A program made the translations under genes and the position numbers. A stretch of 64,000 nucleotides of DNA from Patescibacteria group bacterium. GTDB lineage: Bacteria; Patescibacteriota; Minisyncoccia; UBA6257; Colwellbacteraceae. The first letter of the stretch is position 1. Each line of letters starts with the position of its first letter. Below the pieces are notes generated by a model, which was not told the origin of the DNA, ran no database searches, and saw only the letters and a program-made list of their open reading frames with translations. Below, piece after piece: positions 8,336 through 56,824 of the stretch. The stretch is from contig JAMCQZ010000008.1 of NCBI GenBank assembly GCA_023380305.1, forward strand, positions 122,659-186,658, written 5' to 3'.

Positions 8336-8371
8336 CGATTCCTCCGACTCCCGCCTCAAAAAACGCCCCTT
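8336..8371 (+). repeat. 36-bp direct repeat, right copy (CGATTCCTCCGACTCCCGCCTCAAAAAACGCCCCTT)
   Basis: It is preceded by a T-loop-like CTCGGGTTCGATTCC. The copy plus its upstream context resembles the tRNA-Trp 3' end (CGAGGTTCGAATCCTCGTGGCCCCGCC). Its 3' part forms a perfect terminator hairpin. Confidence 0.6.
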
Positions 8372-8388: not shown

Positions 8389-9578
8389 ACGATCTTCTTA
8401 AATTTTCTCTTCCCGATCTGGAGAATCAAGCCTTCCGCCGGGATATCGATTTCTTCGACCGGATTATCGTGTTTTTTCTCGTTTATATCGACTCCGCCCT
8501 GTTCCACCAGCCGCCTGGCTTCGCTCCGGCTTTTGGCCATATTGGCGGCGACAACGAGATCAATGATATTCATTCTGGAAGAAACGGCCCTAAAGACTTC
8601 GATGTTTTCGGGAGCTTCTTTTTCCCGGAAAACCCTGTTAAATCCGTCCTCGGCCGCTTTGGCGGCTCCGAGACCGTGATACAAAGCAGTGATTTCGAAA
8701 GCCAGTCTCGCCTTGGCGTCCCGAGGATTTTGCGAATCCATGATCTTTTTTATTTCCTCTTCTTTGAGATCGGTGCAAAGCCAGAAATATTTATAAATCA
8801 GCTCGTCATTTAGACTCATCATCTTGCCGTACATATCGCCTGGCTCGTCGGAAATATTGATGACGTTTCCCCAGCTCGTCGACATCTTCCGGCCATCGGT
8901 GCCTTCGAGCATTTCGTTTATCAAAATATCCTGTTCCTTCTGACGATAATATTTTTGAATCGTCCGGCCGGCCATCAAATTAAAAAGCTGGTCTGTCCCG
9001 CCGAGCTCGACGTCGGCCTTAATGGCGACGCTGTCATATCCCTGCATCAGCGGATATAAAAATTCACGAAGGCTTATTTCCTCATGACGCTCGAAACGGT
9101 CCTTAAAATTCCGACGTTCGAGCATCTGGAGGACGGAGAAGCTTTCCGCCAGATTGGCGATTTCTTTAAAATTTAGTTTTCTCAACCAATCGTTGTTGTT
9201 TCTAAACTCCACTTTCCGGAGATCCAGAATTTTGCCGAGCTGACGCTTGTAGTCGGCCATGTTCTTTCTAACCTGGGCTTCGGTGAGCATTGGACGCTTG
9301 GAAAGCTTGTCCGACGGGTCGCCGATCTGGGCCGTAAAGCCGCCGATAACGAGTACCACCTTGTGCCCAAGGTCTTGGAACTCCTTAAGCTTCCTGATGG
9401 CCACCGCCCGACCAAGATGAATCTTCGTCCCGGTCGGATCAATGCCGAGCTTCACGCGCAAACGCTTTCCGGACCTCAAGGCCTCTTCCAAATGCCCGCG
9501 ATCGATAACTTCGGCCACGCCCCGGGAAAGCAAAGCGTTGATCTTTTCCTCCTTATTTGTTTTTCTTGATGATTTCAT
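8382..9578 (-). CDS. tyrS: tyrosine--tRNA ligase (bacterial type with C-terminal S4 domain)
   Basis: HIGH-region variant [15 protein letters not shown] for KMSKS, and a C-terminal S4-like [20 protein letters not shown]. The annotated ATG overlaps the clpP 3' end by 26 nt, so a downstream non-canonical start is possible. Confidence 0.85.
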
Positions 9579-10173
9579 CGATAAGGCCGTAGTCTTTAGC
9601 TTCCTCGGCGGTCAGCCAGAAATCGCGGTCGCTGTCTTTCTCAATTTTGGCAAGCGATTGCCCGGTCATCTTCGCCAAAAGCTGGTTGACCCTCTGTTTG
9701 GTCTTCAAGATCTGCTTGGCGGTAATCTCGATGTCGGTCGCCTGGCCTTCGGCCGCGCCCATCACTTGGTGCAGAAGGATTTCCGAATTGGGTAAAGCGA
9801 ATCTTTTTCCTTTGGCTCCGGCCGCCAAAAGAAAAGCGGCGAAAGAAGCGGCCATGCCGACGCAATAGGTCTCGACGGTCGGCCTGACCAGCTGCATCGT
9901 ATCGTAGATGGCCATACCAGCCGTTACCGATCCGCCCGGGGAATTGATATAAAGCTTGATGTTCTTCTTGGGATCCTCATAATCGAGGAAAAGAAGTTGG
10001 GCGATGATTAAATTCGCCACCTGGTCGTTGATCGGACCGCCCAAGAAAACCACCCTGTCCCTCAAAAGGCGGGAATAGATGTCGTAGGCCCGCTCGCCAT
10101 AAGTGCTTTTTTCGATGACCGTCGGCACCAGATATTGGTATCCTTCGGCTTCGTTTTTAATGTCTTTATTCAT
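9553..10173 (-). CDS. clpP: ATP-dependent Clp protease proteolytic subunit
   Basis: ORF 9553..10224 trimmed to Met18 ([37 protein letters not shown]...), which begins 5 nt after the nusA stop. Contains the Ser-His-Asp ClpP catalytic-triad regions ([11 protein letters not shown]...HQ). Confidence 0.85.
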
Positions 10174-10177
10174 TTTG

Positions 10178-11437
10178 TTAATCTTCTTCTCCGACAAACT
10201 TCGGAATAATTTTGGTTTCTTCAATTTTATCTTGTTTCAAATCGCCTTCCAAGACCTCAGGCAAAGTATCTTCATCCTCGGTTTCGGCGACACCCCCTTC
10301 TTGGACTTCTTCCGGTCTCGATTCCGAACGGACGTCGATCTTCATGCCTGTCAGTTTGGCGGCCAATCTGACATTTTGCCCGCCCTTGCCGATAGCAAGA
10401 CTCAATTGATCCTCGGCTACCAGAACCTTGGCTTCGCGACGCAGTGATATTTCCACGCTCAAAACCTTAGCCGGCGAAAGGGAGGCTGCCACGAATTTCT
10501 CCGGCTCCTCTGACCATTCGATGATATCAATTTTCTCCTGACCTCCAAGCTCGTTCGTTACCGCCATTACCCTCGTGCCCCGCTGCCCGACGCAGGATCC
10601 GACCGGGTCCACGCCTTGAGCTTTGGAAGCAACCGCGATTTTGGTGCGACTTCCCGGCTCACGGGCAACGCCTTTTATTTCCACTGTCCCGTCGTTGATT
10701 TCCGGAACTTCCAGTTCGAAAAGCCGATTGATAAACCTCGGATGCGACCGAGAAAGGATAATGCCCGGCTGGCCGCGACGATCTTCCTGGATGCTCAATA
10801 CGTAAAAACGCATTCTTTCGTTCGTACGATAATGTTCTCCCGGAATGGATTCATTGCCAAACATAATTCCCAGAGCCTTGCCGATTTCAACGTAAACATT
10901 CCCCCGGTCAAAACGGTGGATGATGCCGGAGACAACTTTGCCCTCCTTGTCTTTAAATTCCTGAAGAAGCATATCTTTTTCGGCCTCGCGGAGTTTCTGT
11001 AAAATAACCTGCTTGGCGGCTTGAGCGGCAATACGGCCGAAATCGGTCTTCGGCTCAAGGCTGAATTCCAAATTCTCGCCGACCTGAACGTCGGGGTTAA
11101 CCTTTTTCGCTTCTTCGACGAAAATATGTCTTTCCGGATTGTAACGGGGAAGTTTCGGCTCCTCTTCTTCCTGCGGCTCAGCCGGCTGTTCTTCCACGGC
11201 TTCTTCCTCGGTAACGACCCGGACCGTATTTTCATCAACCACCTCTTTCACCTGCCAAAAAGCCAACTCTCCGGTTTTTTCATCAAGCTTGGCCTTAATC
11301 ACTTCTCCCCGCTTGCCATATTCCTTGCGATAAGCGGCGGCGATAGACTCTTCTATAACCGAGATAATCTTTTCCGGCTCGATGCCCTTTTCCTTGGCGA
11401 CCTGGCCGATGACGATCAGCAACTGTTTTAAATCCAT
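10178..11437 (-). CDS. nusA: transcription termination/antitermination factor NusA
   Basis: N-terminal domain, S1 ([21 protein letters not shown]) and tandem KH ([23 protein letters not shown]; [20 protein letters not shown]). Confidence 0.9.
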
Positions 11438-25357: not shown

Positions 25358-25373
25358 TGTTTCACGTGAAACA
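25358..25373. promoter_or_regulatory. isolated perfect parS site (TGTTTCACGTGAAACA)
   Basis: Exact 16-bp ParB/Spo0J parS consensus palindrome. Confidence 0.7.
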
Positions 25374-25681
25374 ATCTGTTTTCACAAAAATGTTTCACAC
25401 CCGATAAATCGGTTGGGGACGACGCCGGGACAAGCTCAAGCAGCCGGTAAATCCAAGGACCAGAAAGCATCCTCCAAAAGCGGATCCCAATCCGCCGACA
25501 CTAACAACGGAAGAGTTAAAACGACCGCTGAAACGGCATCATCGAGCCGGCTGGAACCCAAATCGTTTCGTCGCCTCTTACATCGATAGCCAAGCCAAGC
25601 GCCGAACGAAATTGTCGTTCTCGCCGCGAATGAAATAAAAATATTTTTCAAAACATCTGGTTTGTGATAGATATAAAAAGC

Positions 25682-25753: not shown

Positions 25754-25859
25754 CAGCTGTCAAAAAATCCCTAAAGGGCGGTCCGAAAAACCACGGGCTC
25801 GAATCCTGCGCCGTCCACCGTAAAAAATAAAGCCGCCTCTTTCGAGACGGCTTCGGGGA

Positions 25860-26381
25860 TTATCTGGAAACACGACGCGCTTTGACGACGCGGCGGCCGA
25901 GCGCGAGAGCCGCGTCAAGACCAGTATCCCCTTCTCCGCAAAAAACATCGAGCTCCAAGTGATCGGTAAGCGAAGCTTTCCTGTCGTTCACACGCACTTC
26001 GCCCACGCCATCGACGAACCAAAAACTGCCGAAGGGCGCGAGATCCAAATTGCTTGAAGCCGCGGACCCGATATAGGTTTGTTCGCCTATGGCCGTGCGG
26101 CCATTGCCATTCATTTTAAGATCGGCTTCGTATGATCCACCGGCATAATGTTTCTGACCGAACAATGGTTTATAGTAACCGGTGATTATGACTTCGACAG
26201 GCGCATTGACGCCATCGTGGGTCTCGCGATAATTCGGCGGAGCGAGAGGTTCCTCCAAAACCGCAACTGCTCCCCTGCTATGCGTTTGATGTCGGCTTTC
26301 TAAAAAGCCGGATAAAAACCAGGGCACGGAGACAACCAACACGACCGCGAAACCGAAAATTACCAACCCTTTGCGCGACAT
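25860..26381 (-). CDS. membrane-anchored 3D-domain (MltA/RlpA-like) protein, putative cell-wall-active
   Basis: N-terminal TM anchor. The C-terminal GRTAIGEQTYIGSAASSNLDLAPFGSFWFVDGVGEVRVNDR...GEGDTGLD resembles the 3D (Asp-rich) domain. Confidence 0.45.
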   Translation of the reverse strand: MSRKGLVIFGFAVVLVVSVPWFLSGFLESRHQTHSRGAVAVLEEPLAPPNYRETHDGVNAPVEVIITGYYKPLFGQKHYAGGSYEADLKMNGNGRTAIGEQTYIGSAASSNLDLAPFGSFWFVDGVGEVRVNDRKASLTDHLELDVFCGEGDTGLDAALALGRRVVKARRVSR

Positions 26382-26781
26382 CTAACGATACCTCCATTAT
26401 GTGATTTGGAATGTCCTACGGCTTACGCACAAAGATTTATAGTCTAACGATAGAAACCAGACCACAATTCTTTGGTCGCGAGTTAAAACTTTATACTCAA
26501 TTAATTTTGTGCAGTCAAATTGAGAACGCGGCCATTTTTAATAAATTTGGCCACATGGCCGGACTATGTCCACGTGGCCAAAACGTGGCCGAGTGACGAA
26601 GAATTATTGGCCAAGCTAGGTTAAAGAATGGTCTAAATAATCGATCTGTCAATCTACATCTACGTTAATCAGCACAACTTAATATTTTGCGACGCTGTCT
26701 ACACAAAGTGTGAAACATCGTTTTTTATTGATAATCGATCCGTCGCGTTAAATCTACGTTTTTCATAAAACCGAAATTTTA

Positions 26782-27051
26782 ATGTTTCACGTGAAACATT
26801 TTGTTTGCATAAAAATGTTTCACGAGGCTAGTTTACGATGTTTCACGTGAAACACTATATTCTAAAAAACCCGGAAAAACCTCAATTCGGTGTTTACAAT
26901 GTTTCACGTGAAACATTTTTTATTCCGGTGTGAAACAAAATTGTTTCACAGATAAAATTCTGGTGTTTCACGTGAAACATGCCCATAAATCCGATGGCCA
27001 CATGTCCTAATTACTTGGCCAGGCCAACAGCCGATGTTTCACGTGAAACAT
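26782..27051. promoter_or_regulatory. parS centromere-like array: five perfect TGTTTCACGTGAAACA sites plus half sites within ~270 bp
   Basis: Perfect 16-mers at ~26783, 26839, 26900, 26964 and 27035, most of them in the 18-bp form ATGTTTCACGTGAAACAT. Half sites lie at 26815 and 26700. An inverted split site GTGAAACA-AAAT-TGTTTCAC lies at 26929-26950. The surrounding 26390-27033 has no convincing CDS. Confidence 0.8.
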
Positions 27052-27111
27052 CAGTTGACCTTTAAAGCTGGCCAGCGCAACAAATTTTCCGAAAACAGGC
27101 TATACTTAATT

Positions 27112-27546
27112 ATGCGCTCTTTAAATAGAATAAAAGGGGATCAGGGCGAAGAAATCGCCTGTGGATATCTCGTGGACAATGGTTATCAGATACTCGACCA
27201 AAATTTTTGGCGACCCTTCGGCGAGATAGATATAATCACGAAATTTCGAGGTCGGACACTTGTTTTTATCGAGGTCAAAACTATCCACAAACCCGGCCAA
27301 ATGGCCATGTCACAACCTGGCCAAAATGCGGCCAAACATAACCAGGACAAGCTCAAATTTCAAAATTCTATACAGCCCGAAGATAATTTAACTGCCAAGA
27401 AAATGGCCAAGTTAAAAAAGACATGTGCGTGGTATGTTGGCCAGCATCCAGAGCTGGTTGATCTTGAAACTGGCTGGAGGATCGATTTAATCAGCTTGAC
27501 AATTACTGGGGAAAGTTGCCTTATCAGACATTACCAAAACATTTAA
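27112..27546 (+). CDS. YraN/UPF0102 family protein (predicted endonuclease fold) with an internal low-complexity insertion
   Basis: ORF 27034..27546 trimmed to Met27, because the upstream MFHVKH codons are just the last parS palindrome. GEEIACGYLVDNGYQILDQNFWRPFGEIDIIT...LVFIEVKT is the UPF0102 core. The insertion HKPGQMAMSQPGQNAAKHNQ... is encoded by a TGGCCA-rich repeat. Confidence 0.65.
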   Translation: MRSLNRIKGDQGEEIACGYLVDNGYQILDQNFWRPFGEIDIITKFRGRTLVFIEVKTIHKPGQMAMSQPGQNAAKHNQDKLKFQNSIQPEDNLTAKKMAKLKKTCAWYVGQHPELVDLETGWRIDLISLTITGESCLIRHYQNI

Positions 27547-27547
27547 A

Positions 27548-28843
27548 ATGATTTCACGAATCAAATTGTCCAGACTAGCTGACAAGCGACTCGCGCGCCC
27601 CTCCTCCATCCCGTCTCCAACCGCAGGTCTGGAACAGGGCTTCACTCTCGTCGAACTCCTCCTTGTCATAGGGATCCTTGGAATCATGGGAGGAATCACG
27701 GTTCTCGTGTTGAGGCCAGCTGAGCTCTTGAAACAAGCCCGGGATTCGGAAAGGCTAGCCGATATGAAGACGTTGAGCCAGCTTTTCACCTCGTATACCA
27801 CCCAGGTGTCGGAGCTCTACGGAAACCCGCAGAACATCTACCTTTCTTTGCCCGACACAAATCCGGATTGCTCTTCCTACAGCCTCCCAGATATTCCTTC
27901 CGGCTACAGCTATCATTGCGTTTCCACAGCAAACCTGAAGAAGGTGGACGGAACAGGCTGGATACCGGTGAACTTCAATTCCATTCCTGGAGGTTCTCCT
28001 ATCGCGGTCTTGCCTGTTGATCCGGCAAACAACGTTTCCTATTACTACAGTTTTGTGGAGGGAGGGTCGTATTCGTTGACCTCGTTTTTAGAATCCCAGA
28101 AACGGGCCCAAGAGAAACCAGATACCGAAGCCACTGGTTCGCTCAGGCAAGACGGTTTTGTCTACGCGATCGGAACAGATCTCGATCTTACGCCCGATAT
28201 AATTTGGGGGAGGAGCTGTAAAACCATCAAAACCCAATATCCGCAGAGTCCCGACGGGCTTTATTGGATAGACGCCGATGCCGAAGGCATTGAGCCGGAA
28301 ATCAGGGTATATTGCGACATGACGACCGACGGCGGAGGATGGACCCTTATCCAATCAACCGTTAAGGGCCAGGCAGCTGACAGCCGTTGGGCCGATACGT
28401 TCCCTAACCAACTCTATCAGACGATCGGCGAACCGTCGCTCATCAGCCCATACCGATTGGCCATGCGTTACTGGTATCTCATACCGAACACCAGCTGGAG
28501 CAAAATGGCGATTACGACAGCTGAGCAAAAGAAGACCTTCAATAAATCTCCGACTTTTTCCCTGACCGGCGTCAATGCCGGCCCGACCGGCTTTACTTAT
28601 ATCGGATCTGATCCGGTTGTCGTCCTTAACTCGCTAAGTTCTTACAACTGGAACACCTGCACTTATGGCGTGGCTTATTTCAACACCAGTTGCTGCGGCA
28701 CCTGCATCCTCTACAACAATCCGACCACCTACAACGCCTACAATCAGCCGATGATGTCGACGATCACCGCCATTGACGGGTCGGTTATCCAGAAATGGAA
28801 TAATTTCGCGCCTCTCGACCGACTCAATATCTTCTCGAGATAG
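27548..28843 (+). CDS. type IV pilin-like protein with C-terminal fibrinogen-related domain (FReD), long 30-aa leader
   Basis: Prepilin cleavage/methylation motif G|FTLVELLLVIGILGIMGG after a 30-residue leader. The C-terminal CKTIKTQYPQSPDGLYWIDADAEGIEPEIRVYCDMTTDGGGWTLIQ carries the FReD signature (C..I....SG.Y.I....VYCDM..DGGGWTVIQ), followed by a Cys-rich tail. Confidence 0.7.
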   Translation: MISRIKLSRLADKRLARPSSIPSPTAGLEQGFTLVELLLVIGILGIMGGITVLVLRPAELLKQARDSERLADMKTLSQLFTSYTTQVSELYGNPQNIYLSLPDTNPDCSSYSLPDIPSGYSYHCVSTANLKKVDGTGWIPVNFNSIPGGSPIAVLPVDPANNVSYYYSFVEGGSYSLTSFLESQKRAQEKPDTEATGSLRQDGFVYAIGTDLDLTPDIIWGRSCKTIKTQYPQSPDGLYWIDADAEGIEPEIRVYCDMTTDGGGWTLIQSTVKGQAADSRWADTFPNQLYQTIGEPSLISPYRLAMRYWYLIPNTSWSKMAITTAEQKKTFNKSPTFSLTGVNAGPTGFTYIGSDPVVVLNSLSSYNWNTCTYGVAYFNTSCCGTCILYNNPTTYNAYNQPMMSTITAIDGSVIQKWNNFAPLDRLNIFSR

Positions 28844-37424: not shown

Positions 37425-39875
37425 ATGAAAAAAGATAACGTCTATAGAGACATTTTTATTTCGGTCGTCGCTCTCGGAATTTTCGCCGCGCTCGCCGGCC
37501 TCTTGGTCTTCTACCGCTTGAGCAAGACTCTTCCGCCAGTCGCTCAGCTCGATGGCGACATCAAGACCGAGTCAACCAAAATCTACGACCGCACCGGGCA
37601 GGTGATGCTCTACGAAATCTACGGTGAGGAGCGCCGCACTATTCTCTCGGCAGATCAAATCCCTGATGTTATGAGGCGAGCGGTGATCGCCGTCGAAGAT
37701 AAGGAATTCTACGGCCATCCGGCCTTCGATATCGCGGCCATGACTAGGGCCCTTATCGCCGACATTTTGAAACAAAGCGCTTCCCAGGGCGGCTCAACCA
37801 TCACTCAGCAGCTCGCCCGGAACGCCTTTTTAACGACCGAACGCTCGATAACGAGAAAGCTCAAGGAGATCATCCTCGCCTATCGCATCGAAAAACTTTA
37901 TTCCAAGGACGAAATCCTGAATCTCTATTTAAACCAGATTCCCTTCGGCCAGAACAGCTACGGCATTGAGGCTGCGAGCCAGACCTATTTCGCCAAACAC
38001 GCCTCCGATCTTAGTCTGTCCGAAGCGGCCCTGCTCGCGGCCGTGGCCAAAGGGCCAAGTTACTTTTCTCCCTGGGGGTCCCACCTCATCGAGCTCGAAG
38101 GCCGCAGGCAATACGTGCTCGAACAGATGGAAAAAGTCGGGTTCATCGACAAGCAGCAGTTGGAAGCCGCGAGAGCGGACAAGCCACGAGTCCTTGCCGA
38201 ACCCCAAAGGGCCAACTTTCATATCGCGCCCCACTTCGTCATTTACGTCCAGGATTATTTAAACCAGAAATACGGGGAGGACTTCGTGAGGAGATCGGGA
38301 ATGAAGGTGATCACCACCTTGGATGTCGACCTCCAGAAACTAGCGAATGAGAAAGTGGCCTCCGGCGGAAAAAGGAATATTGAGATGATCAACGGCCACA
38401 ACGTCGCCCTACTTGCCGAAGACGCGACCAACGGCCAGATACTCGCCATGGTCGGGTCAAGGGATTATTTCGCCGATTCCGAACCAGCCGGTTGCGTTGA
38501 AGGGGAAAACTGCCTCTTCGAGGGAAAATTCAACGTCGCCACTCAGGGATTGAGACAGCCCGGATCCGCTCTAAAACCCTTTGTCTATTCGTTAGCATTC
38601 AAATCAGGCCTGACTCCCGACACCGTCGTTTTCGATGTCCCGACGGAGTTCCGCGCCAACAGCTCTGATTGCCCGGCTGTCCCGAACCTCATCGATGAAA
38701 ACAAAGAATGCTATCATCCGAAAAATTACGACGGTCTTTTCAGGGGGCCGATCATGTTGAAAGACGCCCTGGCGCGGTCTTTAAACATTCCGGCGGTTAA
38801 AGTGCTCCATGTCGTTGGGCTCCAAAATGCCATCAACTGGCTGGAAAGATTCGGCATCACTACCTTGAATGATCCCGACCGCATCGGGCTTTCTCTCACC
38901 CTGGGAGGAGGGGAAATCAGACTGACCGAACTCACGAATGCCTACGCTACCCTGGCAAACGACGGTGTTTTCAATCCTCAAACCGCGATCTTGAGCATCG
39001 CCGATTCCAAGGGGAACGTTTTGGAACAATTCGAACCGAAACCAGAAAGAGCCGTCGACGCCCAATATGCGAGGCTCGTAAACGACATCCTCTCCGATCC
39101 AAAGCTCAGGGAGCCGCTCTTCGGATCAAACCTTTACCTAACCCAGGTCCCGGGCAAACAGATCGCCCTTAAGACAGGAACCGCCGACAACTACGTCGAC
39201 GCTTGGGCCTTCGGCTATTCGCCGCGGCTCGTGGTCGGTCTCTGGGCCGGCAACAACAACCGCCACCCCTTGGGAAAAGCCGGATCAAGTATTCTGGCCG
39301 CAATTCCAACCTGGCACGACTTCGCTATCGAAGCCTTTAAAAACGAACCCGGCCTTACCTTTATCAAGCCAGATCCCATCTATTCCGATTCGCCGATACT
39401 TTTGGGAGCGATCGACCGAAGCAACGTTCACGACCTCCTTTATTTCTTAAACCGGATTTCCGATCCGCAATACCAGAATTGGGAAGAAGACGTCAGAGCC
39501 TGGGTGACCCAAAACGGCATGCCTCTTTATTGGGGCCAGGCCACTTATACCTTTAAAAGCGACGGCCGAGTGGAATTAAACGGTGAAAAAAATATCACCA
39601 TAAGCCTGTCTTTCCCGAAAAACGGCGACTTTATTAATTCCTCGTCCGAATTGAAAGCGTCTGTCTCGGCCGAATCCGGCGTAAAAAGCATCGAACTCCT
39701 ATTAAACAGTCAGCCGATAGACGTTTTCCAGGCCGGTTCAAAAAACATCGTCGATTATCGCTTTGTTTTCGGGACGACTCCATTAAACCCCCAGAATTCG
39801 TTAACCTTACGGGCGACAAATGCTTTAGGGAACTCCACCGAACAAACAATAATCGTCTTTAAGGAGACCGATTAA
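37425..39875 (+). CDS. class A penicillin-binding protein (glycosyltransferase plus transpeptidase) with C-terminal extension
   Basis: GT51 motifs RAVIAVEDKEFYGHP and GGSTITQQLAR. Transpeptidase SALKPF (SxxK) and KTGTA. Confidence 0.85.
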   Translation: MKKDNVYRDIFISVVALGIFAALAGLLVFYRLSKTLPPVAQLDGDIKTESTKIYDRTGQVMLYEIYGEERRTILSADQIPDVMRRAVIAVEDKEFYGHPAFDIAAMTRALIADILKQSASQGGSTITQQLARNAFLTTERSITRKLKEIILAYRIEKLYSKDEILNLYLNQIPFGQNSYGIEAASQTYFAKHASDLSLSEAALLAAVAKGPSYFSPWGSHLIELEGRRQYVLEQMEKVGFIDKQQLEAARADKPRVLAEPQRANFHIAPHFVIYVQDYLNQKYGEDFVRRSGMKVITTLDVDLQKLANEKVASGGKRNIEMINGHNVALLAEDATNGQILAMVGSRDYFADSEPAGCVEGENCLFEGKFNVATQGLRQPGSALKPFVYSLAFKSGLTPDTVVFDVPTEFRANSSDCPAVPNLIDENKECYHPKNYDGLFRGPIMLKDALARSLNIPAVKVLHVVGLQNAINWLERFGITTLNDPDRIGLSLTLGGGEIRLTELTNAYATLANDGVFNPQTAILSIADSKGNVLEQFEPKPERAVDAQYARLVNDILSDPKLREPLFGSNLYLTQVPGKQIALKTGTADNYVDAWAFGYSPRLVVGLWAGNNNRHPLGKAGSSILAAIPTWHDFAIEAFKNEPGLTFIKPDPIYSDSPILLGAIDRSNVHDLLYFLNRISDPQYQNWEEDVRAWVTQNGMPLYWGQATYTFKSDGRVELNGEKNITISLSFPKNGDFINSSSELKASVSAESGVKSIELLLNSQPIDVFQAGSKNIVDYRFVFGTTPLNPQNSLTLRATNALGNSTEQTIIVFKETD

Positions 39876-40981
39876 TCTTTGATCGGCATTAAAATATAGA
39901 AATAAGAAGTGTCGTTCGGCGCTTTGATGATCGCTGGCCGGCTGTCTCCCTGGAGGCCGAATAAAACCGTATCCGTGTAAATGTTTTTCAATCCGTCCAG
40001 GAGATATTTCCAATTAAACGAAGCTTTGACTGGGTCGCCGTTTATTTTCGCGGAAATCAAATATTTGTTTTCCCCGAGTCCGCTGTCGGCCGAATAGACC
40101 TCGACGATCTTTTTGTCGTCTCCCACTTTAACGATCACTTCGCCACTTCTCGCGGTAAACGACCCGGCTAATTTCATAGCGTTCACCAACTCCTGTTTAT
40201 CGATGACTATTTCGGTTTCGAGAATCTTCGGAATGATCGGCCCGTAATCCGGAAACTGCCCGTCGATCAGCCGGGTGATTATCTCCAGGCTTTCTGTCTT
40301 GAAAAGCGCCTGGGAGTCGTCGATAAAAATATGGACATCATCCTCGTCATCCAAAACCCTCACCAACTCCTGGATGGTTTTTAAGGGAATAATGGTTTTT
40401 TTAACCTTTAAGGAATTGCTTTTAAATTGCGTTTCCGGGATAGTTTTTTCTGCTAGCCTAAAACTGTCGGTCGCCACCAATTTGAAAACATTGGTTTCGA
40501 AATTAAAAAGAATGCCGCTTATTTCCGGACGCAAATCGGAAATTTGACAAGCGTTGATTATTTTATTGATTCCTTCCTTTAAGACCGCAGCGGGGATATT
40601 AAAACTTCCTGATTCCGGAGTGATTTTGGGGATAATCGGAAAATCCGAAGGATTCATCCCTTGGATAGTCGCTTCGTAATTATCCGTTTTAAGAAAAAGG
40701 TTGTTCTTTTTCGCTTCAAGGTCAATGCGCTCGCTTTGAAGATTGTTGATCAGACTATTTAAGAGATTAAAAGGGACCGTTACTTCTCCTTGCTCGGTGA
40801 TTTTTCCAGGAACGATTTTTGTGATAGCCGCTTCAAGATTAGTGGAAGCGATGGTGATTTTCGACTGATCCGCTCTAATAAAGATATTTTTTAAGATCGG
40901 CAGATTGAGATTATCTTCGATCGTTCTTGAGACGGCATCCAAGGCATTTTTTAGATTATTACGTAATACGATTATTTTCAT
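39872..40981 (-). CDS. dnaN: DNA polymerase III beta sliding clamp
   Basis: Three-domain beta-clamp layout (MKIIVLRNNLKNALDAVSRTIE...), positioned immediately downstream of dnaA. Confidence 0.85.
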   Translation of the reverse strand: MKIIVLRNNLKNALDAVSRTIEDNLNLPILKNIFIRADQSKITIASTNLEAAITKIVPGKITEQGEVTVPFNLLNSLINNLQSERIDLEAKKNNLFLKTDNYEATIQGMNPSDFPIIPKITPESGSFNIPAAVLKEGINKIINACQISDLRPEISGILFNFETNVFKLVATDSFRLAEKTIPETQFKSNSLKVKKTIIPLKTIQELVRVLDDEDDVHIFIDDSQALFKTESLEIITRLIDGQFPDYGPIIPKILETEIVIDKQELVNAMKLAGSFTARSGEVIVKVGDDKKIVEVYSADSGLGENKYLISAKINGDPVKASFNWKYLLDGLKNIYTDTVLFGLQGDSRPAIIKAPNDTSYFYILMPIKD

Positions 40982-41130
40982 ATATAAATTTGTAGTAGTT
41001 ATCCGTGTGGATTGGTGGATAAGTTGTTTTTCGACGCTTTTTAAATAAGTTTTTTGATATTTATTTTTGTGGATAAAAAGTTTTTATCTGCGTTCGTCTG
41101 TTTTTATCCATAATTTATTCCCGGAATAAT
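40982..41130. promoter_or_regulatory. putative oriC segment: DnaA-box cluster in AT-rich dnaA-dnaN intergenic region
   Basis: A perfect box TGTGGATAA at ~41068-41076, GTGGATAAG at ~41015-41023 and TTATCCATA at ~41104-41112, plus weaker boxes near 40999-41013 and T/A-rich spacers. Confidence 0.6.
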
Positions 41131-42489
41131 TCACAGGTTTTGGGGTTTATTGATTAAATCCTTGATTAGAGAAATTTTTTGATTCAACCCTTGGTCTTTG
41201 GAAAGAGAAAGGTTGATTTTTTCATAGGCGTAGATGGCTGTCGTGTGATCGCGCTTCCCCATTTTTTCGGCAATATAGGGATAAGACATATTGAGAAGTT
41301 CCCGCAGAAGATAAATAGCCACTTGTCTCGGCTCGACGATCTCTTTTTTCCGGCCCCGACCGATCAGGTCGGTTGGGGAGATTTCGTAGAAGGTGGAGAC
41401 GGCTTTAAGCACGTGTGTTGGGCTAATATTGACCGCAGACTGGGTTAAAATATCATTGATGATATTTTCCACTTGTTCGATAGAAAAACCCTCCTGGTGC
41501 TGATTTCTGTAGAAAATAAGCTTGTTTAAAATACCTTCGAGCTCCCGGATATTCCTTTGGATTTTTTTGGCGACGATGCTGATAACGGCGTCGTCGAAAG
41601 CCTCGCTTTTCTCTTGAAGCTTCACTTTAATAATGGCCATCCTTGTTTCGTAGTCCGGGAAGCTGATATCGGCGATCATTCCACCTTCAAACCTCGAACG
41701 AAGCCTTTCTTCGAGTATCGGAATGGCGCGCGGAGGCCGATCCGAAGAAATGATGATCTGTTTATTGGCCTCGTAAAGGGCGTTGAAGGTGTGGAAGAAT
41801 TCTTCTTCAGTTTTCTCCTTTCCGCCGATGAACTGGATATCGTCAATTATTAAGACGTCGACGTTCCGATAGGCTTCTTTGATATCCTCGACGCGTTTGT
41901 TTCTTATCGCCCAGATAACGTCGTTCGTGAACTTTTCCGAGGAGACATATTTGACGTTGACGTTTTTATAGTTGTTTTTTATTTCGTTTCCGATAGCTTG
42001 GATCAAGTGGGTTTTACCGAGGCCGGTGCCGCCGTAAACAAAGAGAGGATTGTATTTTTTGCCGATCTCTTCGATGACAGCGAGCGAAGCGGCGTAAGCC
42101 AGTTCGTTCGAGGAACCGACGACAAACGATTTCAAATTGTATCTTGGATTGAGTCCGGTCTCGGGATCGATCTTAAGTTCGGAGAAAACCAATTGCTTGC
42201 TTTGAGGAGCGGCCGGAGCCTGTTCGGCGGGCTTCTTGAAAACTACGCTATCGACGGCATAACTAATATTTCTGATCGATCCGTCCTTGCTTCTTAAGAC
42301 GCCGAGGATTAATTTATGGTATTTTGTTTCCACCCATTCTTTGGCGAAGTGGTTTGGGAGGATAACAGTCGCCTTTCCGTTTTCGTAATCGTTCATGCGG
42401 CTGTTTTTTAACCAAGTAAGGAAGTTGGGCTTTGAAATTTGTATTTCCAGTTCTGACAAAACGTTTTTCCAAAGCTCTTCCTTATTCAT
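41131..42489 (-). CDS. dnaA: chromosomal replication initiator DnaA
   Basis: AAA+ Walker A GGTGLGKTHLIQAIGNE, box VII, and a C-terminal DNA-binding domain. Confidence 0.9.
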   Translation of the reverse strand: MNKEELWKNVLSELEIQISKPNFLTWLKNSRMNDYENGKATVILPNHFAKEWVETKYHKLILGVLRSKDGSIRNISYAVDSVVFKKPAEQAPAAPQSKQLVFSELKIDPETGLNPRYNLKSFVVGSSNELAYAASLAVIEEIGKKYNPLFVYGGTGLGKTHLIQAIGNEIKNNYKNVNVKYVSSEKFTNDVIWAIRNKRVEDIKEAYRNVDVLIIDDIQFIGGKEKTEEEFFHTFNALYEANKQIIISSDRPPRAIPILEERLRSRFEGGMIADISFPDYETRMAIIKVKLQEKSEAFDDAVISIVAKKIQRNIRELEGILNKLIFYRNQHQEGFSIEQVENIINDILTQSAVNISPTHVLKAVSTFYEISPTDLIGRGRKKEIVEPRQVAIYLLRELLNMSYPYIAEKMGKRDHTTAIYAYEKINLSLSKDQGLNQKISLIKDLINKPQNL

Positions 42490-42556
42490 GGCTTAATTTT
42501 AGGTAAGCGGAGCTTGATAGTCAAAAGAAGCAAAAAAACATAAACTGTTGACTACC

Positions 42557-42565
42557 TGTGGATAA
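42557..42565. promoter_or_regulatory. perfect DnaA box (TGTGGATAA) in dnaA-rpmH intergenic region
   Basis: Exact reverse complement of TTATCCACA, about 20 nt upstream of rpmH. Confidence 0.5.
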
Positions 42566-42583
42566 TTCGATTATTTTTAATAT

Positions 42584-42718
42584 ATGTCATTAACTTATCA
42601 GCCGAGAAAGAAAAAGAGAAGCCGAACGCACGGCTTTCTTAAGCGTCAGAGCACCCCAGGCGGCAGACGGACGGTTGCGAGGCGTCGCGCCAAAGGAAGG
42701 AAGAGGCTGACGGTTTAA
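42584..42718 (+). CDS. rpmH: 50S ribosomal protein L34
   Basis: Not in the ORF track (44 aa). [44 protein letters not shown] aligns with L34. Its stop overlaps the rnpA ATG (TAATG). Confidence 0.85.
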
Positions 42719-45049: not shown

Positions 45050-45415
45050 TTAAAACGGAGTTTTCCTGGCCGTTCCGGCAACCTTGACGATCGTTTGCGC
45101 TTCCGGCCGGCTGATAAGGAAAAAAGTAACGAGCAGAGTGATGGTCTTGATGGGTAAAATATTCAAAATTGGGAAGAGCTCGAAAACGCCGCCGGCGAGA
45201 GACCAAACGCCTTTGATGCCTTTGACAAGCAAATAGCCGTTGATGACAATGCCGGCGATAAGGGCGACGAAAGAATTTAGAAACAGGAAGATGAGCCCGA
45301 CCACCGGCACCAAGCCGAAAAGTCCGTTCAAGAGTTCGAAAAGATCGGCTCCGATCGCCACCAAAAAAAGAATGATCCCCTCGGGCAGCGATATTTTGGG
45401 AGACGCTTTATCCAT
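45050..45415 (-). CDS. small polytopic membrane protein (VirB3-like?) in T4SS-like operon
   Basis: Three predicted TM helices. The start overlaps the stop of the upstream VirB4-like gene (translational coupling). Confidence 0.45.
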   Translation of the reverse strand: MDKASPKISLPEGIILFLVAIGADLFELLNGLFGLVPVVGLIFLFLNSFVALIAGIVINGYLLVKGIKGVWSLAGGVFELFPILNILPIKTITLLVTFFLISRPEAQTIVKVAGTARKTPF

Positions 45416-47760
45416 TAGACGTTTTCCTGCTCCTCGAGACCTTCTTCTCCGGCGAGCGCCGCCTCGGCCTGTTCGGCTTCGACGATCTCTTCCGGATTGG
45501 TAGTGATGATCTGGTGCTCGAAGGGAGAGGCGACGACTTCGATTGCCGCATGGGTCAGCCCCGCGAGAAACAGGCCCTGGCCGATGTCTACCTCAAGAAG
45601 ATAATTCTTTTCCGATTCGGAAAGTCCGAAGGCCTTGCCCGTTGATTCGATGGACGAAGGGGACTGTTTCAAAAGCAGTTGGAGGGATGAGTTGGTGATG
45701 ATCGGCCGGCCGTAGGGAGAGCTTAAAAAGTCCTCCACGTCCTGGGTGATGGTCGAGATGCCGAGATAGTATTTTCTCGCTCTTTTGACGAGGCCGAAAA
45801 GGAATGAGGCCGAATCCGGATATTTCATCATCCACCAGGCCTCATCGATGATCATCAGCCTTTTTTTGAGGTCGGCTCTCACTAGGTTCCAGACGAAATT
45901 CAAAATGATGAACATGGCGATCGGACGGAGTTCGTCTTCGAGGTCGCGGATGGAAAAAACAATGAGCCGGTTATTGGTGTCGATATTCGAAGCCTGGTTC
46001 AAGAACCCGGCATAGCTTCCTTTGGTGAAACGATAGAGCCGGTCGGCCAGGGCACGGCCGCCTTCGATATTTCGGAGGATTTCCTCCAGGTCTTCGAGGA
46101 GCGGCGGCGTGGCGCCGGAGAAGTCCTTGTTCGGCGTGATGTCTTTCGAGGCGTAGGCTTCGGTGATGGCCTGATCAATAACGGCTTCTTCCTCCGGCTT
46201 GATCTCTCCGAACATCAGCTTTAAAAGGCTTGTCAGGTTGACGATGTGTGATTTCAGGACTTCTGGCGGACTCTCGTCTTCCGGAATTTGCGGAACGTCA
46301 AAAGGGTTGATGTGGTTCGGCGAATCGAGCGAAATCTTGATAAAGGATCCGCCCGCGGAATTCGCCAGGTTTTCATATTCGTTTTCCGGATCGATGATGA
46401 TCACCTCGTCGCCGATCATGAGAGATCGGAGCACTTCGAGCTTGGTGGCATAGGATTTTCCGGATCCGGCTTTGGCGAAGACGACGGTGTTGGCGTTTTC
46501 CAAAGAAAACCGGTCGAAGATGATGGGAGTGTTGTTGTGCCGGTTGATGCCGTAGAGTATGCCCTCGTCCGAGGACAGGGTGGCGGAGACGAACGGAAAG
46601 AAAGAAGAAAGCGTGTTGGTGTTGAAGGGATTCGCGATTTCCAGACGGTCCTCGGCGATCGGTAGGGTGGAGTAGAAGCCCTGGAGGTTTTCAAAAAGCA
46701 AAGGCTTGGCGTAGATGAGCTTGGCCTCGAGTCCGCTCGAAATGCGGTCGATGATGCGGTTGAGATCCGAAGAGTCTTTGCCGAAAATGGTCAGATAAAC
46801 GCTTACCGAAAAAAGTTTTTCCTGAGATTGCTGAAGGTTGTCTCGCAAGGCCTCGATATCCTGCAGGGCGGTCTCGAGCATCGGATCCCGGACCAGGCCT
46901 TTCTCTTCGATTTCCATAAGTTGGACCTGGACCTGGGCTGATCGGTTGCGGAGCTGTCTCAAGACGTCTCCTGTCTCGGTGGGCGAAATATGGATGGAAA
47001 TGTCGGCGAGCTCGGCGAGATTGATGAGGCCAGAAAGCCAGCCGCTCGAGAGATACCGCGGATAACCGGAAAGAAAAAGAGATTTGGCTGTCAGCTCGTC
47101 CACCTTTAGGGAGTCCGGAGCGATCTCGAATCGCCGTGGCCCGATGAATTTCTGGGCCTCGGCCGGATTCAGTTTTTCTCCCGGGTTGAAGGCGCTGTAA
47201 AAAAGCTCTCGGAGCTCCGCTTCTTCGAGGACAATGCCGCGGAGCCCGATGCGGTGGAGGCTGTTTATGATCTGGCTGGCCTTGAGATCAAGTTTTTCTT
47301 TGGCTTCGCGGACGGCCGTCGGCTCTGTCTCGGCTGGAGGCTGTTGCCGGCCGATGGTCGGCAGGCTGATGATCTCGTGGGGGATGGTGATGAAAAAACC
47401 TTTTTTCATCACGGCGTTTTCGGCGACGAAATTTTCGATGAACTCCCGATAGATGGCGATTTGGGAACGCATCATCTCGTTCTGCTCCTGGTTTTCTTTT
47501 TCTTTCAGCCGGTTCAAATAGTCGTCGATAAAAAACTTTCTCGAAGAGACGCTGATTTCGATCGGATAGTCGAGGGAGTTTAGGAGATCGGCGAAGGCCG
47601 AAAGGATCATCTGCTGTTCTTCCTCGGATTTAAGATCGAAGTTGACGCCGTTCACCATGATGACCTTGCGGAGTCCGCCGTCTTTCAAAAAAACGGAATC
47701 GCCTTCGATTTTTTTGACCGGCAGGATGTTCTCCGAGGAGATGTTTTGTTTCTGAGCCAT
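45415..47760 (-). CDS. VirB4/TrbE/PrgJ-family type IV secretion ATPase
   Basis: Walker A FAKAGSGKSYATK, Walker B MIIDEAWWMM, plus the N-terminal VirB4 domain. 781 aa. Confidence 0.8.
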   Translation of the reverse strand: MAQKQNISSENILPVKKIEGDSVFLKDGGLRKVIMVNGVNFDLKSEEEQQMILSAFADLLNSLDYPIEISVSSRKFFIDDYLNRLKEKENQEQNEMMRSQIAIYREFIENFVAENAVMKKGFFITIPHEIISLPTIGRQQPPAETEPTAVREAKEKLDLKASQIINSLHRIGLRGIVLEEAELRELFYSAFNPGEKLNPAEAQKFIGPRRFEIAPDSLKVDELTAKSLFLSGYPRYLSSGWLSGLINLAELADISIHISPTETGDVLRQLRNRSAQVQVQLMEIEEKGLVRDPMLETALQDIEALRDNLQQSQEKLFSVSVYLTIFGKDSSDLNRIIDRISSGLEAKLIYAKPLLFENLQGFYSTLPIAEDRLEIANPFNTNTLSSFFPFVSATLSSDEGILYGINRHNNTPIIFDRFSLENANTVVFAKAGSGKSYATKLEVLRSLMIGDEVIIIDPENEYENLANSAGGSFIKISLDSPNHINPFDVPQIPEDESPPEVLKSHIVNLTSLLKLMFGEIKPEEEAVIDQAITEAYASKDITPNKDFSGATPPLLEDLEEILRNIEGGRALADRLYRFTKGSYAGFLNQASNIDTNNRLIVFSIRDLEDELRPIAMFIILNFVWNLVRADLKKRLMIIDEAWWMMKYPDSASFLFGLVKRARKYYLGISTITQDVEDFLSSPYGRPIITNSSLQLLLKQSPSSIESTGKAFGLSESEKNYLLEVDIGQGLFLAGLTHAAIEVVASPFEHQIITTNPEEIVEAEQAEAALAGEEGLEEQENV

Positions 47761-47763
47761 GGG

Positions 47764-54948: not shown

Positions 54949-56487
54949 TCAAGCGGCGTTTTTTAATCTGTATTGATAGGCCTCAGCTACGTGGTCGGCC
55001 GTAACGAGTTCCGATTCCTCGAGATCGGCGATGGTGCGGCTTACCTTGAGCATCCGGAAATAGCCCCGGCCGGAAAGCTCCGATTGGTCAAAGATTTTCT
55101 TTAGCATGTTGTCGGCGCCGCGGTCGCAATTGATAAGTTCCTCACATTGTTTCGAAGACATTTCGCTATTGAGGAGTAGGGAGATTTTCTGTTGTGCAAA
55201 ACGTTCTTTTTGAATTTCTCTTGCTTGGTTGACCCTTCTTCGGATTTCTGAGCTTCTCGCTCCGCCGCTTGATCTGAGTTCGCCGAGTTTCAGATTGGGA
55301 ACGTGGATTTGAATGTCAATCCGGTCAAGCAAGGGGCCGGAGATTTTCTTCTGGTAGCGGAAGATTTCGTTGGCGCTACAGCGACATTCGCGTTTCGGGT
55401 CGCCGTAAAATCCGCAGGGGCATGGATTCATAGCGGCGACGAATTGGAAACGCGAGGGGAAGGTGAGGCTGGACTTCGCCCTTGAAACGACGATCTCTCC
55501 AGATTCAAGGGGTTGCCTCAGGGCTTCGAGAATATCCCGGTGGAATTCGGGTAGCTCGTCCAAGAAAAGCACGCCGCGGTGGCTTAAGCTGATTTCCCCG
55601 GGTCTGGGATTCGCGCCGCCGCCGATCACGGAAACGATCGAGGCTGAATGGTGTGGCTGCCGGAAAGGCCGCGATTTTATAAAAGAAGCATTTTCGGGGA
55701 TCATTCCCGCGGCGCTCCAGACCTTGGAGACTTCGAGCGCTTCGGCCAGGGTGAGCGGCGGCAGAATGGAGCCGAGGGCTTTGGCGAGCATGGTCTTGCC
55801 GGACCCCGGCTGTCCGGACATGAGAATGTTGTGGCCGCCGGAAGCGGCGACAATCAGGGCCCGTTTGGCCGCTTCCTGGCCGCGGACGTCTCCGAAGTCG
55901 AATTCTGCTTCGATATTTTCGAAATCCGGTTCTTGGTTCGGGAAAACATCGATCAAACGTTTGTTTTCGAAGTGGTCGATGGCTTCCGCGAGGCTGCCAA
56001 CTGGGACGACGGCGATCTCTTGGATAAGGCTTGCTTCCTCGGCGTTTTGTTTCGGAAGGACGATGGATTTAAATCCCTGTTCGGCGGCGGCCGAGGCGAT
56101 GTTCAAGGCGCCGCGCATCGGCCGGAGTCCGCCGTCGAGGCCGAGCTCGCCGACAAAAAGGATCTGCGAGGAGTCGAATTCTTTCATCTGGTTTGAAGCC
56201 ACTAGATAGGCGAGGGCGATTCCGAGATCGTATTGCGATCCGGATTTGTCGATATCCGCCGGCGCGAGGTTGACGACGATTCTCCGGTTTTCGCGGTTCG
56301 GCGGCCGGCAGCCGCTCCACTTGAGGGCCGAGTTTACCCTCTCTTTGGCCTCGGACAGTGCCTTGTCCGCCAGGCCGACGATCGTAAAACTATGAAGGCC
56401 GACGTTTAAGTCGACCTCGATTTCGATTATCCTCGCCTGCACCCCCTCGAGTTCCGCTGAGAAAACGCGAGACAGGTTGGCGGGCAT
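54949..56487 (-). CDS. comM: YifB/ComM family Mg-chelatase-like AAA+ ATPase
   Basis: ORF trimmed to Met30 (MPANLSRVFSAELEG...). Lon-like N-domain, Walker A MSGQPGSGKTMLAK, and the C-terminal ChlI-like region. Confidence 0.85.
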   Translation of the reverse strand: MPANLSRVFSAELEGVQARIIEIEVDLNVGLHSFTIVGLADKALSEAKERVNSALKWSGCRPPNRENRRIVVNLAPADIDKSGSQYDLGIALAYLVASNQMKEFDSSQILFVGELGLDGGLRPMRGALNIASAAAEQGFKSIVLPKQNAEEASLIQEIAVVPVGSLAEAIDHFENKRLIDVFPNQEPDFENIEAEFDFGDVRGQEAAKRALIVAASGGHNILMSGQPGSGKTMLAKALGSILPPLTLAEALEVSKVWSAAGMIPENASFIKSRPFRQPHHSASIVSVIGGGANPRPGEISLSHRGVLFLDELPEFHRDILEALRQPLESGEIVVSRAKSSLTFPSRFQFVAAMNPCPCGFYGDPKRECRCSANEIFRYQKKISGPLLDRIDIQIHVPNLKLGELRSSGGARSSEIRRRVNQAREIQKERFAQQKISLLLNSEMSSKQCEELINCDRGADNMLKKIFDQSELSGRGYFRMLKVSRTIADLEESELVTADHVAEAYQYRLKNAA

Positions 56488-56488
56488 G

Positions 56489-56824
56489 TCAGCTTTCCTG
56501 CTTGTTGTGCTCTTTGCAATAGCGCGCCGACGGATTGAGTTCGAGAACCTCCATCTCGATGTTTTCCCCGCCAATTTCGCAGATGCCGTAGACGTTGTTC
56601 TTGATTTTGTTCAAAGCCGAACGGATGTCGTCGAGTTTCTGCAGCAAGATGTCCTGCTTGCTTGCCTGCAAATCGGCCGCGGTCGATTCGTCGGCTTCTT
56701 CGGTTTCCTCGTCCTGGGTGTCGCCGAAATTGACAACATCGGGCGTGGCTTTGAGTTCGGACTCGATTTTGGCCTCTTCTTGGACCAGTCTTTTTTCAAA
56801 TTTTTCTAAATCTTCGTTCGTCAT
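56489..56824 (-). CDS. DksA/TraR-family C4 zinc-finger protein
   Basis: Acidic coiled-coil N-terminus and a C-terminal CEICGENIEMEVLELNPSARYC zinc ribbon. Confidence 0.55.
   Translation of the reverse strand: MTNEDLEKFEKRLVQEEAKIESELKATPDVVNFGDTQDEETEEADESTAADLQASKQDILLQKLDDIRSALNKIKNNVYGICEIGGENIEMEVLELNPSARYCKEHNKQES

Follow-up and report, generated by a model that had tools for sequence, protein, structure and literature searches.

The non-coding block in front of yraN in this uncultured Patescibacteria (CPR) bacterium is very probably the centromere of its chromosome, that is, the zone where ParB would be loaded. This reading, made from DNA sequence, draws on the identity of the sites with parS, their concentration in a short segment, their proximity to the replication origin, the purifying selection acting on them, and the recurrence of such arrays at the same locus across Patescibacteria.

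The window, i.e., the whole 64,000-nucleotide stretch of DNA that was analyzed, contained six exact copies of TGTTTCACGTGAAACA, starting at 25358, 26783, 26839, 26900, 26964, and 27035. By chance, 0.02 copies were expected at two mismatches or fewer, as estimated with dinucleotide-preserving shuffles. No further site of this kind was found in the 64 kb at up to three mismatches, and no exact copy was found in the approximately 10 kb past the right end of the window. All six sites are identical to TGTTNCACGTGAAACA, the 16-bp inverted repeat that constitutes the canonical ParB/Spo0J parS. The earlier note had described five exact parS sites within about 270 bp (26783-27050) and a sixth at 25358; both the count and the match to the ParB/Spo0J consensus were borne out, with six identical 16-mers lying far beyond chance expectation.

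The sites of the array occupy 26783-26798 (parS 1), 26839-26854 (parS 2), 26900-26915 (parS 3), 26964-26979 (parS 4), and 27035-27050 (parS 5). The full 18-bp palindrome ATGTTTCACGTGAAACAT was present at three of these five sites (26782-26799, 26899-26916, and 27034-27051), as expected from the claim that most of them are extended, and the remaining two carry the extension of the 16-mer on one flank only. The start-to-start steps are 56, 61, 64, and 71 bp, and Tandem Repeats Finder reported no tandem repeat in the array. Thus, the array is not a regular repeat. The isolated perfect parS at 25358-25373, which forms a 20-bp palindrome (ATTGTTTCACGTGAAACAAT), directly follows the tRNA-Ile terminator. 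Together with two direct half sites on the plus strand at 25377-25398 (TGTTTTCAC, AAAAA, TGTTTCAC), it makes up a 41-nt composite unit of parS, degenerate half site, AAAAA, and half site. This unit occurs twice, at 25358 and 26783, with 90% identity, and the second copy includes the degenerate half site TGTTTGCAT and the half site TGTTTCAC at 26802-26823 (plus strand). In addition, a 50-nt direct repeat has copies at 26637 and 26731. An origin of the array by tandem duplication was considered and rejected, since the Tandem Repeats Finder result was empty and only the 41-nt and 50-nt units occur twice.

The array lies within a 730-bp gap between two divergent genes, one encoding a 173-aa protein with no Pfam family (25860-26381, minus strand; start at 26381) and the other being yraN (UPF0102, PF02021; 27112-27546, plus strand), which is transcribed away from the array. 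The former marks the left boundary of the block, and the existence of a non-coding segment hosting the sites was thus confirmed. To the left of the array lie ftsH, tRNA-Ile, and tRNA-Val, and beyond yraN lie a pilin-like gene, rpsT, holA, and fpg. The GC content of the block is 0.45, compared with about 0.51. At the Rfam gathering score, only the tRNAs were detected and no RNA gene was found in the gap; the matches obtained there at permissive E-values were far under threshold and were discarded as artefacts of the palindromes. The predicted RNA fold of 26382-26780 had a z score of -2.2. Two further observations were made in the surrounding DNA. The 3' end of tRNA-Val is repeated over 23 nt, with 78% identity, at 25796-25818, 42 nt past the tRNA gene; this copy may be left over from a tRNA gene or from an integration. 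The pilin-like gene (27548-28843), located between yraN and rpsT, encodes a protein whose N terminus bears a methylation motif and which weakly matches fibrinogen/collagen C-terminal domains. This gene is missing from that position in L124, a contig from a JGI metagenome that encodes a YraN with 73% identity to that of the window.

Whether the last palindrome is coding depends on the start of yraN. One gene call placed the start at ATG 27034, inside this palindrome, giving 170 aa, and the 167-aa product at NCBI implies a start at GTG 27043, which is also inside it. Homologues of YraN with 71 to 76% identity are 144 aa long and start with MRSL, MLSL, or MKSL at the position equivalent to 27112, and in L124 the open frame extends just six codons upstream of the equivalent ATG. 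These homologue starts and the short L124 frame indicate that the true start is 27112 and that the last palindrome is non-coding. The earlier note had dismissed the MFHVKH start as a misreading of the last parS, and this proved correct. Site 5 accordingly begins 77 nt before the yraN ATG.

To place the array in a wider context, one genome per species (185,579 species) was scanned for three perfect parS separated by 30 to 60 nt, and at least 120 loci with this pattern (at least three perfect parS within about 170 bp) were obtained. Among the matches listed, 14 of 120 were labelled as CPR and 3 more resembled the window in their genes (L071, L084, and L113), giving 17 CPR loci. The array was directly 5' of yraN in 7 of these 17 loci, which had been selected by their arrays (L006, L049, L061, L080, L084, L085, and L099), and no non-CPR locus among the matches listed had yraN adjoining the array. 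In other CPR loci, it was rpsT that adjoined the array (L034, L069, L071, and L092) or lay within about 2 kb of it (L111 and L113). A sample blind to parS was also assembled, comprising eight yraN loci: seven homologues picked only by the length of their contigs, and L123, the sole match of a metagenome scan that had a single YraN protein as the query. Arrays were present upstream of yraN in five of the eight (L123, L124, L127, L128, and L130). In L127 and L128, three perfect parS lie 68 to 204 nt upstream of yraN, and dnaA is 6 kb away. No parS was found within 20 kb around yraN in L125, L126, and L129, where yraN sits beside comM and nusA. Overall, an array was found no more than 570 nt upstream of yraN in 13 of 16 CPR yraN loci. 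In the simplest reading, an ancestral array-yraN-rpsT arrangement near the origin was later rearranged, leaving the array with one neighbor or the other, and this favors positional conservation of the centromere.

In the three loci lacking the array, one or two small genes separate yraN from the nearby comM, and nusA follows yraN. This proximity fits the reported partnership of the two proteins, in which YraN, with ComM as its partner, acts as a D-loop nuclease in natural transformation (bioRxiv 10.1101/2024.02.06.579203). In the window, comM is located at 54949-56610. From the position of the array, a functional tie to yraN is possible.

The close association with yraN also raises the question of whether the palindromes are operators of a transcription factor other than ParB that controls the divergent promoters of yraN and the 173-aa gene. 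The array fills the divergent promoter region and travels with yraN in many CPR lineages; in the window, as in L124, L127, and L128, its proximal site begins 68 to 77 nt ahead of the yraN start codon (21 to about 290 nt in other loci). In L123 and L130, the site sequences have drifted, as operators can. However, the 16-mer matches the pan-bacterial parS exactly, and an operator would need far fewer than 5 to 9 copies. CPR arrays away from yraN still adjoin rpsT or lie within about 2 kb of it, and the loci in which yraN adjoins comM/nusA have no array within 20 kb. Moreover, arrays of the identical type flank parAB in other phyla, and a scan for promoter consensus sequences gave no signal over the shuffled background. 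That the palindromes are operators of this kind is therefore very improbable.

The two drifted arrays deserve description. L123 (metagenome contig Ga0265293_10002689) carries about 11 variant sites at 9533-9954, upstream of yraN. With a period of approximately 42 bp, hybrids of the form TGTTTGCC|GTGAAACA (TGTTTGCCGTGAAACA) alternate with palindromes TGTTTGCCGGCAAACA, and no parS with two canonical halves was found in this array. L130 has two copies of TGTTTCGCGGGAAACA and one of TGTTTCGCGCTAAACA at 9690-9975, likewise upstream of yraN, with core changes at half-site position 7. Such variants suggest a shifted or dual ParB specificity in some lineages, and their presence at the same locus shows that the sequence of the site itself can drift, a point against the ParB reading, in which the binding protein is identified by the sequence match.

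Dense perfect-parS arrays are usually located beside parAB or other origin-region genes. Among the matches listed, at least 12 phyla were represented, which by record title included Bacillota, Actinomycetota, Alpha- and Gammaproteobacteria, Bdellovibrionota, Myxococcota, Spirochaetota, Planctomycetota, Acidobacteriota, Chloroflexota, Armatimonadota, Bacteroidota, and Patescibacteria. Five or more sites within 400 bp were present in 42 of the 120 loci listed, and the largest arrays had nine sites. Within 8 kb of each of these loci, a ParB box II motif was detected in 44 of 120 and a ParA Walker A motif in 58 of 120, and gyrA was near the array in 11 of 120. The same pattern was found in only 7 of 2.9 million viral contigs. 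Thus, with at least 120 genome loci in many phyla against 7 viral contigs, dense arrays are a widespread chromosomal architecture rather than a plasmid hallmark. True tandem arrays also exist: the Hyphomicrobiales MAG chromosome OZ245032.1 carries three (L019, L025, and L107), far apart from one another, each with seven to nine perfect parS at a strict period of approximately 50 bp.

This distribution bears on the proposal that the array belongs to an integrated plasmid or other mobile element and serves it as a centromere of the tandem type known from F sopC. The earlier note had likewise regarded the tight stacking as unusual and plasmid-like. Dense stacking and the lower local GC content (0.45 versus about 0.51) would suit such an origin. 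In contrast, the array has no regular repeat unit and no adjacent partition, integrase, or replication genes, and it is flanked by ftsH, tRNAs, yraN, rpsT, holA, and fpg, that is, by housekeeping genes whose order is kept in L124 and L084. With the triple pattern in at least 120 genome loci from at least 12 phyla and in only 7 viral contigs, the view of the stacking as unusual and plasmid-like did not hold, and a mobile-element centromere is extremely unlikely here.

Comparison with L124 provided evidence of selection on the sites. From gyrA through the 5'-3' exonuclease gene, this contig has the gene order of the window. A single perfect parS follows ftsH (at 8338, the counterpart of the isolated site), five more lie upstream of yraN, and the lone half sites are at corresponding positions. 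In the intergenic alignment of the two, the full sites, the half sites, an inside-out pair of half sites, and a block at 26678-26727 were essentially invariant, while the spacers had accumulated substitutions and indels. Since sites and half sites are kept while spacers drift, the sites are under selection. Together with the arrays in 13 of 16 CPR yraN loci, the 1 + 5 sites of L124 answer the question, raised in the earlier note, of whether relatives keep a stacked array at this locus.

The pattern in L124 is, judging from the alignment, what purifying selection on protein-binding sites would look like, and it speaks against repeats that are neutral or selfish. If the sites were functionless, as a selfish element or a recent duplication, this could explain why the 41-nt composite unit occurs twice (25358 and 26783) and why a 50-nt direct repeat is present (26637 and 26731). 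Nevertheless, L124 keeps sites and half sites base for base while its spacers diverge, arrays recur at this locus in distant CPR classes, and the 64 kb hold no copies elsewhere, which makes this explanation scarcely credible.

The array is close to the likely origin of replication, which was located at 39872-42650 (minus strand) by dnaN, dnaA, clustered DnaA boxes, and the GC-skew minimum. Both dnaA (41131-42492, minus strand) and dnaN (39872-41083) were confirmed by Pfam. The cumulative GC skew turns at approximately 40 to 41 kb, where the GC content is also lowest, and perfect and near-perfect DnaA boxes are clustered at 41014-41112 and 42557. From the skew minimum, the dnaA/dnaN genes, and the DnaA boxes, oriC lies approximately 14 kb from the array and the array itself is not the origin; the distance of about 14 kb from dnaA had been given in the earlier note and was reproduced. 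That the block is part of the replication origin, as its long, AT-richer non-coding gap and two near-DnaA boxes in yraN (27160 and 27281) might suggest, is hardly conceivable, because the skew minimum, dnaA-dnaN, the perfect DnaA boxes, and the lowest GC content all lie at approximately 40 to 42.6 kb. A gene for a TraG/VirB4-like P-loop ATPase (type IV secretion) was also noted near the origin region, at 45415-47763.

The centromere proposed here presupposes a ParB partner whose gene lies elsewhere in the genome. The 64-kb window yielded no gene for ParA or ParB, either by motif scan or with local HMMs built from 43 ParB and 47 ParA sequences, in agreement with what had been stated before. Nor was either gene found in the approximately 10 kb beyond the right end of the window, so that 74 kb was covered in total. 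Likewise, the array had neither gene near it in any of 25 CPR loci, in contrast to many arrays of other phyla. When a large protein database was searched with a ParB profile, most matches were close relatives of the first query sequence, those with an organism name being from Acidimicrobiales or Acidobacteria, and the search was uninformative for CPR. In the literature searched, no paper on parS or ParB in Patescibacteria was found, and the evidence for the partner in this group came from one supplementary gene table. In this table, from a Tn-seq study of the cultured Saccharibacterium Southlakia epibionticum, adjacent ParA and ParB genes are listed (PMC10633639). SEML1_0183 is given there as an AAA family ATPase assigned to K03496 (ParA), and the ParB entry, SEML1_0184, carries K03497 with PF02195 and PF17762 (PMC10633639). 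Both genes are marked "GD / ES / ES" in the same table (PMC10633639), which we read as growth-defect/essential. On these entries, canonical ParAB exists in Patescibacteria. Its presence in the group and the exact match of the sites to the pan-bacterial ParB consensus make ParB the likeliest ligand. As far as can be judged from these data, ParB is by far the most likely protein to bind the array.

The sites would then work as follows. Each of the six palindromes is predicted to bind a dimer of canonical ParB. Upon CTP binding, the dimer would close into a clamp and slide away, freeing the site for the next dimer. Six loading sites in 1.7 kb would multiply the flux of ParB into one dense partition complex approximately 14 kb from oriC, and this complex would then engage ParA and/or load SMC. 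Since the last site is approximately 70 nt upstream of yraN, ParB occupancy may, tentatively, also influence the divergent promoters in the gap.

Neither the lone half sites nor the TGGCCA boxes are accounted for by a simple ParB model. All 8-mer half sites (TGTTTCAC/GTGAAACA) of the 64 kb fall within 25358-25398 or 26710-27050. Five of them stand alone, at 25391 (plus), 26710 (minus), 26816 (plus), 26930, and 26942. The last two form the inside-out pair GTGAAACA-AAAT-TGTTTCAC, which is kept in L124. Half sites and such a pair had been noted before, and their existence was confirmed; the coordinates of the pair, previously given as 26929-26950, are off by one base and should read 26930-26949. 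The half site at 26710-26717 (GTGAAACA) is part of the 50-nt block TTAATATTTTGCGACGCTGTCTACACAAAGTGTGAAACATCGTTTTTTA (26678-26727), which is almost identical in L124 while the adjacent spacers have diverged. The lone half sites may tentatively be regarded as low-affinity ParB contacts; alternatively, they may be remnants retained for another reason.

TGGCCA represents a second motif of the region. Of the 33 TGGCCA hexamers in the window, 10 lie in 26548-27438, a 22-fold enrichment, and they are found on both sides of the parS array as well as inside it. A cluster of TGGCCA/GGCC boxes occupies 26548-26614, further boxes at 26995, 27016/27021, and 27069 are interleaved with the last parS (26995-27074), and four are situated in the part of yraN that encodes a variable loop (27294-27444). 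In L124, all 11 TGGCCA of 19.5 kb are in the homologous region (9376-9505, the counterpart of the first cluster, 9906, and 10183-10332), and three of them form a 21-bp phased repeat, GTGGCCAAGTCCATT. The motif was missing in more distant relatives. No candidate for a protein binding these boxes emerged. A restriction-avoidance signature was considered as well and rejected for the window, as 23 copies lie outside the block against about 15 expected by a rough estimate.

A more elaborate possibility, which we consider doubtful, is that the Patescibacteria centromere is a conserved composite module: the array at the yraN promoter, in this lineage a phased TGGCCA(A) array flanking it, and in sister lineages rewritten half sites (TGTTTGCC and TGTTTCGC). 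If this were true, ParB occupancy could control the expression of yraN or tie recombination to the region of the origin, the TGGCCA(A) boxes would be bound by another factor, and the sister arrays with two kinds of half site side by side would point to a ParB specificity that is dual or co-evolves with the sites.

Taken as a centromere, the array provides a sequence-defined element of this kind for an uncultured, small-genome CPR bacterium. The recurrent yraN/rpsT locus could serve as a landmark for orienting and closing CPR genomes, and the array fragment is a ready substrate for the biochemistry of CPR ParB. Furthermore, bacterial chromosomes commonly carry perfect parS in very dense arrays, which those of the model organisms do not show, and this bears on how the flux of ParB loading is tuned. 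A modest further interest attaches to the conserved locus in Patescibacteria, to the TGGCCA boxes, and to the arrays of variant sites in relatives.

The array is a known kind of element, and the understanding of ParABS is unchanged by it. It resembles the chromosomal parS of the Bacillus subtilis Spo0J system in the identical TGTTNCACGTGAAACA, the origin-proximal position, and the predicted feeding of one complex by several sites. In model chromosomes, parS sites are kilobases apart and often imperfect; here, in contrast, five perfect sites stand in 270 bp and parAB is not nearby. The clusters of Caulobacter, Corynebacterium glutamicum, and Myxococcus xanthus extend over several to tens of kilobases and usually include the parAB operon. 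The array shares with them the many parS copies in a single origin-proximal zone, whereas it is approximately 100 times more compact and has no link to parAB. In Pseudomonas aeruginosa, ParB reportedly makes weak contacts at half-parS sites. The lone GTTTCAC-type half sites beside the full sites, kept in a relative, are reminiscent of this; unlike those of P. aeruginosa, which are said to be scattered genome-wide, the half sites of the window are confined to the centromere block. The plasmid F sopC centromere consists of a regular 43-bp tandem repeat beside its own partition genes. Stacked inverted-repeat sites and, as predicted here, one ParB-family dimer per site are common to both. Neither a repeat unit of fixed period nor an adjacent parAB of its own on a mobile replicon was found for the array, which differs from sopC in its irregular 56- to 71-bp steps, unrelated spacers, chromosomal consensus, and housekeeping context. 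For M. xanthus, 22 parS near the origin have been reported (PMC3899335), and the ParB/SMC system of C. glutamicum has been described (PMC7083940). In Streptococcus pneumoniae, according to a further report, ParB spreading from an origin-proximal parS modulates a neighboring competence operon (PMC4488948). The array is similar in that it abuts yraN, the gene for a reported transformation nuclease. Unlike the link in S. pneumoniae, that between the array and yraN is positional only and is broken in some CPR lineages.
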